Origin: a virus | Lineage: Duplodnaviria; Caudoviricetes | Reading direction: 5' to 3' (one strand) | Length of the DNA: 64,000 nt | IMG/VR virus record: IMGVR_UViG_3300033066_000778 | Location: 64,001-128,000 of that record | In this document: positions 49,760 to 53,613 of the stretch, piece by piece | Numbering within the stretch: position 1 is the first letter of the stretch | Layout: every line of letters begins with the position of its first letter | Position numbers and translations under genes: made by a program | The notes under the pieces: generated by a model | Told to the model about the DNA's origin: nothing | The model's database searches: none | Seen by the model: only the letters and a program-made list of their open reading frames with translations

Positions 49760-50024
49760 GACTCAAATAATAGATATTAGCACATTGTTTAGAACAGAAG
49801 TATAGTCTACCCGAAGCATCACGTAAATGTCGTAAAGTATCAGGAATCCAGTAATTCTTAACCAAGGAAGTTTTAACCGTCATCTTAATACTGTAATTAC
49901 AACCGAACTTGGAGCAGGTTAAACAACTATACTCCCTTACCTTCCCTTTTCGGGGAACGCTGTAATGAGTGGTTGTTATCGTTTCGGTTTTATAATCCGT
50001 AATCATGTGAAAAGGTCTAGTCAT
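49752..50024 (-). CDS. Zn-finger array member 1
   Basis: CLTC...FCSKQCANIYYL. Confidence 0.8.
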   Translation of the reverse strand: MTRPFHMITDYKTETITTTHYSVPRKGKVREYSCLTCSKFGCNYSIKMTVKTSLVKNYWIPDTLRHLRDASGRLYFCSKQCANIYYLSHA

Positions 50025-50195
50025 CGCTCATAAATATATACCTGGGATTGTTAGTATTCCAGGTTTTTTTGTTTTTATCCTTTTAGCCCCTTGCTGCCCC
50101 CGAAGACCCCATACGCCCATTAACCCCTTTAATTACTTTTATATATCGCTTTTTAACTTGATTTCTAAAAACGACTCGTTAGGGGAAATGACCCG

Positions 50196-50226
50196 TTGAC
50201 ATCTGGGCATAGGGGGTAGCTAATTC
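50196..50226 (+). promoter_or_regulatory. Candidate rightward (early) promoter
   Basis: Perfect TTGACA at 50196-50201; -10 box poorly resolved within TAGCTAATT. Confidence 0.4.
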
Positions 50227-50230
50227 ATTG

Positions 50231-50787
50231 TCCCGGCGAACCGGGAGAGCAAGGGGCAGGTGTAGGTCACGGGCGGTTGAGAGGCCGTCTAGGGCTGACC
50301 CTGCCCAACACTGGCTCGCGCCACGATGAGGCGACAATCGTAGGCGCAGGATGTGTGTGTAAGTAAACCATCCGCCAGAACCCCCTTCCCAACATTGGAG
50401 GGGACTCTCTCTTCGCGGAGGTTAACAATCCGCGTAGTGACCCTAGCACAGATAGCGCCGGTATGGACTCACCGAACACCGTATGGTGAGGAAGTATCGG
50501 AGGTGACTAAAGGTAGTGTAAAGGTAGCACCTTACACTAGCGGTTCGTGGGGACTCCGAAACCCCAAATAACAAAAGGTTTTCTTTTTCAATGTCCTATC
50601 ACCCGATGGGGCGGTTAAGAACGCAGTGGTTTCAAGACCACAGTGTCATGCGTTCGACCATTGGGTGATAGGCTCACTCCAGGTAGCGTAACACAGCGAC
50701 GCCGTGCGATGGCGGGGGGACATAGACTAGCGACCTATGTCCCCTTTGTTGCGACGGGAGGATGGGACGAAACAGAGTTCGCCTGTA
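50231..50787 (+). ncRNA. Large multi-domain structured RNA of unknown class
   Basis: About 10 consecutive stems and junctions, e.g. tcccgg/ccggga, gggcagg/cctgccc, cctatcacccgatgg/ccattgggtgatagg, ggggacatag/ctatgtcccc; no credible ORF. Confidence 0.65.
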
Positions 50788-50818
50788 TGGCTTTGAAAAG
50801 CCACTGATGAGTCCCGTC
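50761..50818 (+). ncRNA. Hammerhead ribozyme, type II; predicted cleavage after A50787
   Basis: gatgggac-GAAA-cag..ctg-TA/tggctt-tgaa-aagcca-CTGATGA-gtcccgtc; complete core and three stems. Confidence 0.9.
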
Positions 50819-50845
50819 ATCAGACTGAAACGCAAGGAGGTTCCC

Positions 50846-51274
50846 ATGCGGAACCGCGCTTCCCTCATTGACCTGAACATCCTCGTGTCCTCCATCCCCG
50901 TGTCCGCCCCCGAGACCCGGCAGGGCCGGGTCTTCGCCGCCGCCTGGGCGAAGGCGGACGCGGCCTGCGTGGCGAGGCTGAAGGCGCGGCGGGCCGAGAT
51001 CTCCGCCGCGTGGGCGGAGAAGGAGCGGGCTGAGAAGAAGGAGCGGATCGCCGCCATCCAGGCGGCGAAGGACCGCGCTGAGGCGCGGCGGGCCGAGGCC
51101 CGGAAGGTCGGGGCGGCCCGGCTGCTGAAGGCCGAGATGGAGAGGCAGGAGGCACTCGCCCGCATCGAGGCGGGCGGGCTGCTCGATGCCATGAAGGGCA
51201 AGATCTCGGAGCCGGACGGCATCCGGCTCACCAAGGAGTTGGCGGACATGTTCGCCGCCTTCGGGGAGATCTGA
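50846..51274 (+). CDS. Ala/Arg/Glu-rich helical protein, first rightward gene
   Basis: AGGAGG RBS at 50835; very GC-rich codons. Confidence 0.8.
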   Translation: MRNRASLIDLNILVSSIPVSAPETRQGRVFAAAWAKADAACVARLKARRAEISAAWAEKERAEKKERIAAIQAAKDRAEARRAEARKVGAARLLKAEMERQEALARIEAGGLLDAMKGKISEPDGIRLTKELADMFAAFGEI

Positions 51275-51336
51275 TCTCCCCGAACAGCCACCTCACCGTT
51301 CGCAAGACCGGAACGATGTCGGTGGTCGAGAAGTAA

Positions 51337-51441
51337 ATGGAATTCATCGAGAGCAATCTGGTAGAGATTGCTTTCAGTCTGATAACGCTCATCGTGGCCT
51401 GTGCGTGCTATGTGGGCACAAAAGAAAATGAAGGAGAGTAA
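51337..51441 (+). CDS. 34-aa single-TM peptide (not in track)
   Basis: MEFIESNLVEIAFSLITLIVACACYVGTKENEGE*, stop abuts MYG1 start. Confidence 0.5.
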   Translation: MEFIESNLVEIAFSLITLIVACACYVGTKENEGE

Positions 51442-51442
51442 C

Positions 51443-52363
51443 ATGAACAAGATGAATTACGCGTTCGACGTGGACGCCCTGAACAACATGCCAGAGATCA
51501 CGCGGATTGGCACCCACAATGGCGTCTTCCATGCGGATGATGCCTTCGCGTGCGCGGTGCTGACCGCGCTGTGGCCGGATGTGTGGATCATCCGCACCAG
51601 GAACCCGAAGGATCTGGCCTCGTGCCAGCTTCGGGTGGATGTCGGTGCGAAGTACAACCCGGCGACGGGCGACTTCGACCACCATCAGGGGAAGATCCTA
51701 CGGGAGAATGGAATCCCATACTCCTCCTTCGGTCTGATCTGGAAGGAGTACGGGTGGCTCTTCTTCCCTGGCTGCCCTGAAGCCGCGAAGGAAATCGAAG
51801 AAGGGCTCGTCTATCAGGTTGACGCCACGGACTGTGGCTTCAGCCTCTTCACCCCTCTGACTGAGGAGGCGAAGTTCCCATACTCCGTCTCGTCCGTCAT
51901 CTCCTCCCTGAATCCGGGGTGGAATGAGGGAGGAGACTTCGATGCGAGTTTCGAGCAGGCTGTGAAGCTCGCCCGTCAGATCCTCTGGAGGGAGATCTCC
52001 CGCGCGAAGGGGACGCTGGAGGCCGAAGGGATCGTGAAGGATGCCCTTGCCAAGAGGGAGGATAAGCGGGTGTTGATACTCCCGCAGTTCTGCCCCTGGC
52101 AGGAGGTCGTCTCTTCCGACCCGGATGTCCTCTACGTCCTGTTCCCCTCCGAGACGGGGGACTGGCGCATCCAGACGGTGCCTGAAGAACCCGGCTCCTT
52201 CAAGGCACGGAAGAGCCTCCCGGCTGCGTGGGGTGCGAAGAGGGATATGGATCTCTTCTTCGCCACAGGGGTGGAGGACGCAATCTTCTGCCACCCAGGA
52301 TTGTTCATCGCGGGCTGCAAGTCCCGTGAAGGCGTCCTGAAGATGGCCGAGATGGCCCTGTAA
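51443..52363 (+). CDS. MYG1-family (DHH-like) exonuclease/hydrolase
   Basis: GTHNGVFHADD, VDVG..YNP...FDHHQ, SSFGLIW, FCHPGLF. Confidence 0.92.
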   Translation: MNKMNYAFDVDALNNMPEITRIGTHNGVFHADDAFACAVLTALWPDVWIIRTRNPKDLASCQLRVDVGAKYNPATGDFDHHQGKILRENGIPYSSFGLIWKEYGWLFFPGCPEAAKEIEEGLVYQVDATDCGFSLFTPLTEEAKFPYSVSSVISSLNPGWNEGGDFDASFEQAVKLARQILWREISRAKGTLEAEGIVKDALAKREDKRVLILPQFCPWQEVVSSDPDVLYVLFPSETGDWRIQTVPEEPGSFKARKSLPAAWGAKRDMDLFFATGVEDAIFCHPGLFIAGCKSREGVLKMAEMAL

Positions 52364-52446
52364 TCGGAGTGTCTGAGACATTCCACGAATTCAACCGCTG
52401 GTTTGACGAACTAGTCAACCAGATCAACAGAAAGAAGGAGTCTAAC

Positions 52447-52887
52447 ATGACGAAGATCAACACCCCCGCGATCGGCCACGGACCCGTCAGCCGCATCCCG
52501 CTCCCGGTCAAGGCCGGTGAGCACGTCGATCTCGATTTCTGGAGGATGCTGGGTGACCCGGCATTCGAGGGGGTGACCTTCCGGGTCCAGCGTGGGCTTC
52601 CGAGCGGATTCGAGGGGCCTGTGGCCGAGGCCCTGAAGGTGATCTACGGGAAGAAGATTGACGACACCTTCTTCCTGTCGATCTGGGCGGGTGAGGTGAA
52701 GCGGGAAGGAAAGACCCGCAAGAACGTCAACCTGAAGAAGGCTTCGACGGGAACTCCGACTGACCTTCCGGGTGTTGGGGCCATCCCTGTTGGGTACGGG
52801 GAGCACGACATCAGAATCCTCCTTCGCTGCATGTTGAGCGCGAAGGTTACGAACGACGATAAGAAGAACGATCAAGTCAACTTCTAA
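52447..52887 (+). CDS. Hypothetical protein, paralog of 53230
   Basis: AGGAG RBS; VQRGLP...FFLSIW. Confidence 0.8.
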   Translation: MTKINTPAIGHGPVSRIPLPVKAGEHVDLDFWRMLGDPAFEGVTFRVQRGLPSGFEGPVAEALKVIYGKKIDDTFFLSIWAGEVKREGKTRKNVNLKKASTGTPTDLPGVGAIPVGYGEHDIRILLRCMLSAKVTNDDKKNDQVNF

Positions 52888-52916
52888 CAAACCTTACAAA
52901 GAAAAGGAGTATAGAC

Positions 52917-53147
52917 ATGGCCCGTAAGACTGAACAGGAAAAGCGCAATGAAAGGCGGATTGCCAAGGTCCAAGAGCGGGTCATCGCGGCCCGTCGTCTC
53001 TGGTGGAACAAGGATGAAGAGGCAGGAATCTACAGGGAGAAGGGCTTCGTCGCCTACTCCCAACAGTTGAAAAGTGAAGCTGAAAAGCTTTACGAGGCTT
53101 ACCTCGATGAAGAGTCTCGCCTCTATGCCCTGAAGGGGAACAAGTAA
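52917..53147 (+). CDS. Hypothetical protein
   Basis: AGGAG RBS. Confidence 0.8.
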   Translation: MARKTEQEKRNERRIAKVQERVIAARRLWWNKDEEAGIYREKGFVAYSQQLKSEAEKLYEAYLDEESRLYALKGNK

Positions 53148-53218
53148 GGGCATAGGAATCGAACCCGTATCGTCGTCAGTAACAGCATCAAATAACAAAG
53201 TACAAAAAGCAGTCCTTA
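53145..53218 (+). repeat. Stem-enclosed GGAATCGAACC element, copy 1
   Basis: taagggc/gtcctta stem; core 53155-53165. Confidence 0.7.
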
Positions 53219-53229
53219 AGGAGGACAAA

Positions 53230-53613
53230 ATGAACCAGACCAACATCGACACCAACACCGCCGAGGGCTTCATCAACAAGCTGACCGCTCAGGGTCAGTA
53301 CGATTACTTCCGCCTTCACCGCTTCGCCGGTCACAACACCTTCGGGGGAACGCTGATCAAGGTTCAGCGGGGTGTCCCCGAACAGTACAAGGCCAACTTC
53401 CCCGATTGTCAGGACAGGTACTTCCTGTCGATCTGGAAGTACACCGAAGTGGCAGGGAACGTCACCCTCACCACGAGACTGTCGAAGGAGACGATGCACT
53501 TCGACAAGGACACGGCTGTCCTCATGCTCAAGCTGATGGGCCTGAAGTGGGGAGGCATCGTGGCATCGAAGCACAACCCCGTCAACACCCCGAAGGCCAA
53601 CAACAACTTCTAA
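53230..53613 (+). CDS. Hypothetical protein, paralog of 52447
   Basis: AGGAGG RBS; VQRGVP...YFLSIW. Confidence 0.8.
   Translation: MNQTNIDTNTAEGFINKLTAQGQYDYFRLHRFAGHNTFGGTLIKVQRGVPEQYKANFPDCQDRYFLSIWKYTEVAGNVTLTTRLSKETMHFDKDTAVLMLKLMGLKWGGIVASKHNPVNTPKANNNF

Follow-up and report, generated by a model that had tools for sequence, protein, structure and literature searches.

A candidate type II hammerhead ribozyme between a conserved leader RNA and the first gene of a rightward phage transcription unit

The locus

The window considered here is a stretch of 64,000 nucleotides (positions 64,001 to 128,000 of IMG/VR record IMGVR_UViG_3300033066_000778) from a 153,958-bp contig. It belongs to a tailed phage: genes for the portal, protease and tail are present, and nine tRNAs lie on the minus strand. 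Transcription diverges at about 50.0–50.2 kb of the window. To the left lies an AT-rich array of small genes, while the rightward side, from about 50200 to 53600, has a GC content of 55–74% within a genome of roughly 40% GC. The features at the beginning of the rightward side are as follows, L124 being the locus of the one known relative, described below.

50196–50224, + strand: putative promoter, TTGACA, 17 nt, GCTAAT; recognized by eye and kept in L124
50231–50760, + strand: conserved non-coding structured leader RNA of ~530 nt, 94.3% identical to L124
50715–50750, + strand: terminator-like hairpin at the leader's end, with a GC-rich stem of 10–11 bp, a 9-nt loop and a UUUGUU tail
50761–50818, + strand: candidate type II hammerhead ribozyme, with a complete core and three helices
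50834–50840, + strand: Shine-Dalgarno (SD) sequence AAGGAGG, at +16 after the ribozyme
50846–51274, + strand: first rightward gene, 142 aa, no family match, with its ATG at +27 after the ribozyme

The rightward unit seems to start at the TTGACA-17-GCTAAT sequence, which a promoter scan left unflagged at 50196–50224. The leader RNA that follows matched no Rfam family and gave nothing meaningful in E-value mode, and the interval 49900–51000 holds no tRNA or tmRNA. Compared with L124, the leader shows one compensatory pair change (50258/50302). Its terminator-like hairpin is preserved in that relative with a conserved stem and an exactly inverted loop, and the ribozyme starts ten bases past this hairpin.

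Several other readings of the region were tried and set aside. Two plus-strand ORFs (50353–50571 and 50643–50807) were rejected as coding sequences on account of 1-nt indels in relatives, such an indel breaking the ORF at 50353–50571. A long-range helix between UUGCG (50750–54) and CGCAA (50831–35), taken from the minimum free energy (MFE) fold of 161 nt, was also rejected, since L124 alters the 3′ partner without compensation. Finally, a chimeric assembly behind the GC-rich island is unlikely, given that the junction between AT-rich and GC-rich sequence is also spanned by L124 and by run X2.

Anatomy of the ribozyme

Along 50761–50818, the elements occur in the order stem II 5′ strand, GAAA, hairpin III, the cleavage-site base H, hairpin I, CUGAUGA and stem II 3′ strand. 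Stems I and III are capped by loops while stem II is open, which is the type II circular permutation.

50761–50768, + strand: stem II 5′ strand, GAUGGGAC, pairing with 50811–50818; C50768 is C11.1
50769–50772, + strand: core GAAA (G12, A13, A14 and A15.1), aligned with the GAAA that is invariant in the class model
50772–50786, + strand: stem III hairpin, ACAG (50772–75) with CUGU (50783–86), 4 bp with a 7-nt loop
50787–50788, + strand: predicted scissile bond, after A17 of the triplet GUA (50785–50787), by the hammerhead NUH rule
50788–50803, + strand: stem I hairpin, UGGCUU (50788–93), UGAA loop and AAGCCA (50798–803), 6 bp
50804–50810, + strand: core C3 to A9, CUGAUGA, aligned to invariant columns of the class model R1
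50811–50818, + strand: stem II 3′ strand, GUCCCGUC, pairing with 50761–50768 in the MFE structure; G50811 is G10.1

Every element that the earlier note had described from the letters alone (CUGAUGA, GAAA, the GUA triplet and stems I to III) was found at the position given there. The hammerhead NUH rule places the scissile bond after H17, and the GUA triplet satisfies it, H being any base other than G. From the predicted cut site to the ATG at 50846 there are 58 nt, which is the distance to the first rightward gene that had been claimed.

Folding of 50755–50825 with ViennaRNA returned the hammerhead secondary structure as the MFE. Stem II has 8 bp, including one G·U pair, and is closed at the core by G50811-C50768; its inner 4 bp, GGAC/GUCC, are the class consensus. 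Stem I, with 6 bp, is likewise as in the class, and its loop begins with U, as do those of more than 90% of the class copies among the matches listed. Stem III consists of CAG/CUG plus the A15.1-U16.1 pair (A50772-U50786), and a further pair, G50777-C50782, might close a UUCG loop, in which case A50776 would be bulged.

Work on natural type II hammerheads has described a pseudoknot between loop I and the 3′ tail in the majority of copies, where it matters at low Mg2+ (Perreault et al. 2011, PMC3088659); it usually serves as the tertiary brace of the type, though not as an obligatory one. Monomeric hammerheads are known to suffer from a short helix III (PMC13725137). By eye, no loop I/3′-tail pseudoknot of at least 4 bp could be drawn here, the best being a 3-bp pairing of UGA (50794–96) with UCA (50817–19 or 50820–22). 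In a set of 150 class copies, contiguous pairing of loop I with the tail was no commoner than pairing with the 5′ flank, although this test is crude and may miss the published feature.

Chance expectation, Rfam and the class model

A descriptor of our own, covering all three hammerhead topologies with stems relaxed to at least 4 bp, found this site as its sole match on both strands of the 153,958-bp contig, with no type I or type III hammerhead. The same descriptor found no match in 12.3 Mb of first-order Markov sequence, and by our rough calculation motifs this good would be expected by chance about 1e-9 times per genome.

Searches with Rfam gave a different picture. At gathering thresholds, the 64-kb window yielded the nine tRNAs only and no hammerhead, and in E-value mode the surroundings of the site matched Hammerhead_3 only, at 15.2 bits (E = 3.4). 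The earlier note had proposed a search with Hammerhead_II as a check; that model (RF02276, gathering threshold 37 bits) gave no match at E ≤ 10 anywhere in the contig. The gathering search also missed all 27 descriptor-perfect type II copies in 10 control loci, so that the negative carries little weight and the check is not diagnostic.

The class itself was assembled by a pattern scan of IMG/VR for the core plus the inner two stem II pairs, which returned at least 120 loci, many with two to five copies. From the matches listed, the descriptor extracted 163 type II hammerheads. Their typical form has a stem II of 4 bp, mostly GGAC/GUCC, a stem III of 5–10 bp, a stem I of 6–7 bp and a GUC cleavage site; an A at the cleavage site occurs in 12 of the 163. 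An alignment of 109 class copies shows heavy compensatory variation in all three stems, while the paired fraction in that alignment is high by construction, the copies having been chosen for pairing.

From these 109 independent phage type II hammerheads of IMG/VR, the covariance model R1 was built. It scores the present motif at 40.8 bits (E about 5e-10), with the full model (1–54) matched end to end, a score to be read with the caveat that the pattern used to collect the training copies derived from the core and inner stem II of this very motif. Held-out class members scored 22–65 bits and the L124 copy 44.9 bits, and the motif was the sole R1 match in the window and in the 154-kb contig.

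The position of the element also resembles that of the class. It is intergenic in a phage, on the gene strand and just 5′ of a ribosome-binding site (RBS). Among the matches listed, an SD sequence and a start codon occur within 80 nt downstream in 111 of 149 copies, as against 24 of 148 controls, with class medians of +14 for the SD and +24 for the start. On the upstream side, and again among the matches listed, 79 of 150 copies have an ORF whose stop codon is no more than 10 nt away, a tight intergenic spacer being usual. The downstream geometry here (+16 and +27) is thus that of the class; a long structured RNA as the upstream partner is not.

Judged by sequence, all criteria place the element among type II hammerheads. 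Good support for the identity that had been claimed at the outset comes from the completeness of the core, the presence of all three helices, the score against the class model, the conservation in one relative and a location upstream of an RBS that is typical of the class. Another type II hammerhead in a phage is expected rather than surprising, and this one is of a known kind with atypical stem lengths.

Relatives and conservation

A search of 5.8 billion proteins brought up one homologue of the 142-aa protein (P0002, 85% identity), which is encoded on a 1.2-kb JGI contig at locus L124. No relatives were found by DNA in the 'phages' collection, nor in IMG/VR by way of the 142-aa protein or MYG1. 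One diverged lineage is therefore available for comparison, represented by L124 and run X3.

Between the two lineages, the leader and ribozyme are 94.3% identical and the adjacent gene 82.8%. Half of the differences in the gene (37 of 74) fall at third codon positions, of which 37 of 143 are changed, and synonymous codon changes exceed non-synonymous ones by 32 to 22; this third-position bias and synonymous excess indicate that the gene is real. Set against the third-position changes, the 94.3% identity indicates that the non-coding stretch evolves more slowly than the silent sites of the gene. Since the whole leader is about equally conserved, this conservation is not attributable to the ribozyme specifically.

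Within the ribozyme, 57 of the 58 bases are kept in L124, and with one substitution only there is no true covariation test. The sole change, A50776G, turns an A-C mismatch into a fifth stem III pair. With it, the active fold has a predicted energy of −25.8 kcal/mol instead of −21.5, a gain of 4.3, and the competing folds are unaffected. The change is compatible with selection on the hammerhead fold. The same change is present on a contig of a public wastewater run, and no further ribozyme variants were seen in the DNA contigs of four public runs. Public runs containing the phage come from wastewater and river sites (studies P1–P4), and none of those listed is an RNA run.

Patterns for lineage-specific hammerheads (GGGAC...GUCCC) gave zero matches in IMG/VR and in metagenome contigs. 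A pattern combining the 8-nt stem II strand with AUCAG returned only copies with a 4-bp stem, in which AUCAG lies 4 nt further on, in about the number expected by chance. Neither pattern therefore uncovered a second hammerhead with a long stem II.

Competing folds

Two strands at the borders of the ribozyme can pair with parts of it in ways that exclude the active structure, and a hairpin within its 5′ half does the same. The earlier note had weighed none of these competing folds (50804–50823, 50762–50786 and the decoy strand at 50753–50759).

50753–50759, + strand: decoy strand GACGGGA, a perfect 7-bp complement of 50812–50818
50817–50823, + strand: anti-core strand UCAUCAG, pairing with CUGAUGA

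The anti-core strand is made up of the last two bases of stem II and an AUCAG tail. It is an exact complement of CUGAUGA, with which it can form a 7-bp hairpin (50804–50823), and the pairing of AUCAG with CUGAU must be an inactive state. Among the matches listed, AUCAG at offset 0 after stem II recurs in 22 of 150 other, non-identical phage type II hammerheads and in none of 150 5′ flanks, with about 0.15 expected. In the copies that bear it, the sequence beyond AUCAG is unrelated and the loop I sequences are varied, which leaves the core as its invariant partner. No published description of an AUCAG core-masking tail in phages was found in the literature searched, which is no proof that none exists.

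The hairpin in the 5′ half (50762–50786, −7.3 kcal/mol) hides the stem II strand together with G12 to A14. The decoy strand, in turn, nearly repeats the 5′ strand of the true stem II; a pairing as good was reached in 67 of 20,000 shuffles of the 40-nt flank, for a feature that was noticed post hoc. In a nearest-neighbour ensemble of 50747–50826, the active helix of this phage accounts for only about 1%, the decoy pairing for 75% and the anti-core hairpin for 2.5%; for the A50776G relative, the corresponding shares are 50%, 42% and 3%. Since such ensembles ignore the tertiary energy of the core, they indicate multistability and not inactivity. The anti-core tail and the upstream decoy strand, both conserved, are thus predicted to make the fold multistable. 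Considering that the competitors outweigh the active fold in nearest-neighbour thermodynamics, cleavage may be slow, partial or conditional.

Alternative readings

A catalytically competent type II hammerhead is the probable reading, and three others were weighed against it. The least credible of them, to the point of being highly improbable, is a type III arrangement that would use the downstream GAAAC (50827–50831), reduce stem II to 3 bp (GUC/GAC), leave stem III open and cut at the same site. The Hammerhead_3 match speaks for it, as does the L124 difference G50832A, which would make a G·U of that stem III an A-U. The match lies far under the gathering score of 48.5 bits, however, the arrangement would leave an extra U between C11.1 and G12, and its stem III would be an open helix of 3 pairs only, while in the type II fold stem II reaches 8 bp and the class model is matched end to end. 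It is also improbable, though less extremely so, that the element is a look-alike or relic kept as leader hairpins, for example as a structured 5′ UTR or a terminator-proximal element, and never cleaves. Such a reading would accommodate the weak stem III, the lack of a drawable pseudoknot brace, the absent Rfam match and a conservation that is not ribozyme-specific, and a fold of three hairpins (50762–50786, stem I and 50804–50823) equals or exceeds the active one in predicted stability. Against this stand the 11-base core with U16.1 and H17 at a three-helix junction, for which we estimate a chance occurrence of about 1e-9 per genome and which was absent from 12.3 Mb of random sequence, the class-model E-value, the class-typical distance to the RBS, and an AUCAG tail shared with 15% of bona fide class members among the matches listed. 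Moreover, the only substitution strengthens the hammerhead fold while being neutral for the hairpin fold.

The remaining alternative, possible though unlikely, is that the ribozyme is conditional: a multistate switch, off by default until Mg2+, temperature, a phage or host protein, or the folding of the leader shifts the balance. The hairpin 50762–50786 would hide the stem II strand and G12 to A14, GACGGGA would capture the stem II 3′ strand, and AUCAG would mask the core; cleavage, once permitted, would release the leader RNA and remodel the 5′ end of the mRNA, so that the idea is not exclusive of plain cleavage. Three mutually exclusive folds do lie within about 3 kcal/mol of one another, and prefix folds suggest that the order of transcription favours the inactive hairpins. 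A perfect 7-bp decoy is unlikely by chance, the AUCAG tail is position-specific in the class, with a pairing to CUGAU that must be inactive, and under the G variant of the natural A/G polymorphism the active share is predicted to rise to about 50%, from about 1% with A. On the other hand, no element that would bind a ligand or a protein could be identified, the competitors also make simple sense as devices acting after cleavage (product release and capping of the 5′ end), and the thermodynamic predictions omit the tertiary energy of the core and err by a few kcal/mol. In addition, the one relative shows no variation in the decoy or the tail, so that neither of them has covariation to speak for it. 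A fuller version, which we regard as doubtful, is that a three-state switch (active, decoy-captured and core-masked) gates both the release of the ~550-nt RNA and the protection of the mRNA 5′ end, with A/G at 50776 tuning its set-point and AUCAG serving as a general module. If that were true, the AUCAG tail, borne by about 15% of phage type II hammerheads among the matches listed, would be an undescribed general module for control or for product release.

Proposed mechanism

The reading that we favour as probable is that the early-region transcript running rightward in this uncultured 154-kb tailed phage contains a type II hammerhead competent for catalysis, which would sever the leader from the mRNA. 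The motif, its statistics, class membership, conservation and context carry this reading, and from them we infer the cleavage, the transcript boundaries, the refolding of the products and any effect on stability or translation. Transcripts would start near 50231 and read through the terminator-like hairpin at 50715–50750. Stems I, II and III would then fold around the canonical core, at least transiently, and the RNA would cut itself between A50787 and U50788. A leader RNA of ~557 nt would thereby be severed from the mRNA of the 142-aa gene and the genes downstream, leaving it with a 2′,3′-cyclic phosphate about 40 nt past its terminal hairpin.

The new mRNA would begin with a 5′-OH at U50788, the first base of the stem I hairpin, with another hairpin immediately after it, formed by the UCAUCAG tail and the now idle CUGAUGA. 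The predicted 3′ product thus carries two 5′-terminal hairpins in a row, without a single-stranded 5′ extension, and the RBS would be left 10 nt beyond this capped and structured end. A 5′-OH and a 5′-terminal stem-loop each slow the decay that depends on the 5′ end (RNase E and RNase J). After the cut, the hairpins of the two product halves (−7.3 and −15.4 kcal/mol) would compete with an 8-bp stem II that has become intermolecular. Since each product would fold its own hairpins against such an intermolecular helix, the halves should separate rather than re-ligate.

The role suggested in the earlier note, in which the upstream RNA is matured and the early mRNA is given a stable hairpin-capped end, is a plausible one. 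It would fit the modelled anatomy, given that the 3′ product begins in the stem I hairpin and continues into a second one and that a conserved non-coding RNA lies upstream.

Comparison with known systems

Type II hammerheads of phage and prophage operons have been shown to cleave in vitro and in vivo (PMC3088659; PMC8782182), the in vivo case being that of Desulfovibrio vulgaris (PMC8782182), and they are thought to process polycistronic RNAs (PMC3088659; PMC8782182; PMC6765202). Thousands of phage hammerheads are known, with a biological role that is still called unresolved (PMC6765202). With the phage type II class (Perreault et al. 2011, RF02276) the present element shares an identical core, the G10.1-C11.1 and A15.1-U16.1 pairs and the same permutation, as well as the inner stem II GGAC/GUCC, a 6-bp stem I and a loop starting with U. 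It also shares the phage intergenic site about 15 nt before an SD sequence, and an AUCAG tail of the kind found in about 15% of the matches listed.

The differences are equally clear. Stem II has 8 bp here and 3–5 bp in all 163 copies among the matches listed, where stem III mostly has 5–10 bp as compared with 4 here, and the cleavage site is GUA rather than GUC, with A in 12 of the 163. A loop I/tail pseudoknot of at least 4 bp is missing and an upstream decoy strand is present. The genome holds one copy and not a series between genes, and upstream of it, in place of a stop codon, there is a non-coding RNA of 530 nt with a terminator-like hairpin. Lastly, this copy goes undetected by Rfam. 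Considering that the Rfam Hammerhead_II threshold misses this copy and many ordinary ones, annotation pipelines will under-count phage hammerheads.

A second comparison is with the RiboJ insulator, in which the sTRSV hammerhead and a 3′ hairpin are placed ahead of an RBS and raise expression in E. coli (PMC6206723). By analogy, the phage element could be regarded as a natural counterpart of this synthetic device: in both, self-cleavage (here predicted) strips the upstream RNA and leaves an mRNA with a 5′-OH that starts with hairpins before the RBS. RiboJ is an engineered type III hammerhead, however, whereas the phage element is natural and type II and would make its 3′ hairpin from its own core, and the gain in expression has been measured for RiboJ whereas any gain here would follow from the analogy. 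The hammerheads of viroids and retrozymes offer a third parallel, since there, too, adjacent sequence pairs with the core or with stem strands to give mutually exclusive conformers, one active and the other not; in viroids, such alternative structures serve to protect circular genomes.

As the only hammerhead in a 154-kb genome, the element makes an unusually clean test case, sitting exactly where a 530-nt RNA, conserved and unclassified, meets the first gene of an operon. With two explicit competing pairings and a natural single-base variant whose predicted effect on the balance is about 4 kcal/mol, it provides a tidy experimental handle on the purpose of phage hammerheads.

Structured RNA around the ribozyme

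The conserved leader RNA (50231-50760, +) that lies upstream of the type II hammerhead and the start of the gene behind it hold paired elements that could be compared with related sequences, namely L124, a 1.2-kb JGI contig encoding a homologue of the 142-aa protein, and contigs of two public sequencing runs, X3 and X4.

50254-50260 with 50300-50306: leader helix, GGGCAGG/CCUGCCC
50726-50734: 9-nt loop of the terminator-like hairpin at the leader end (counterpart in L124 at about 636-644, by sequence comparison)
50838-50854 (+): 6-bp hairpin, GGUUCC/GGAACC
50040-50075 (+): strong terminator-like hairpin, then a T-run, in the AT-rich spacer

L124 and the contigs of runs X3 and X4 all carry a compensatory change in the leader helix (A50258C with U50302G) together with C50304U, which leaves a G.U pair. 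This pattern speaks for a leader RNA that is structured and non-coding. At the leader end, the loop ACTAGCGAC of the window is replaced in L124 by GTCGCTAGT, its exact reverse complement, while the 10-11-bp stem is identical despite the inversion of the loop. The difference between the two sequences is a hairpin "flip-flop" inversion, and it shows up in run X3 too, as clustered mismatches.

The loop of the hairpin at 50838-50854 contains the start codon of the 142-aa gene, and the hairpin also includes the final bases of the Shine-Dalgarno sequence; L124 keeps its stem and differs in the loop at 50845. The hairpin at 50040-50075 lies just past the point where the leftward gene array starts; the putative rightward promoter is downstream of it.

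The GC-rich stretch and its genes

The leader and the genes behind the ribozyme share a stretch of unusual composition.

50200-53600: GC-rich stretch, 55-74% GC against about 40% for the phage genome
51401-52363 (+): phage protein of the MYG1/UPF0160 family (PF03690, E 1e-74)
52369-52887 (+): unannotated protein, 172 aa
53230-53613 (+): unannotated protein, 127 aa

It spans the leader RNA, the 142-aa gene, whose product is rich in Ala, Arg and Glu, the MYG1-family gene (second in the ribozyme-headed unit) and two more genes; rightward of it, GC content declines gradually. An assembly chimera is an unlikely origin, since the same AT-rich/GC-rich junction is found in L124. The 172-aa and 127-aa proteins, neither of which was matched in Pfam or PHROG, align with each other (BLASTP E 1e-6), share VQRG.P and FLSIW motifs, and are distant paralogues.

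Type II hammerheads in other phages

At its gathering thresholds, Rfam 15 returned no hammerhead in ten IMG/VR loci (L002, L007, L010, L015, L018, L024, L033, L034, L043 and L047) holding 27 type II copies that match our motif descriptor perfectly, with full cores and covarying stems. The annotation of phage type II hammerheads is likely to be badly incomplete.

Among the IMG/VR matches listed, 150 non-identical type II hammerheads were compared. In 22 of them (at loci within the range L003-L116) AUCAG stands immediately 3′ of stem II, and no 5′ flank of the same set shows it. Further downstream the tailed copies are unrelated in sequence, and their loop I is variable; the sole constant pairing partner of AUCAG in them is the CUGAU of the catalytic core.
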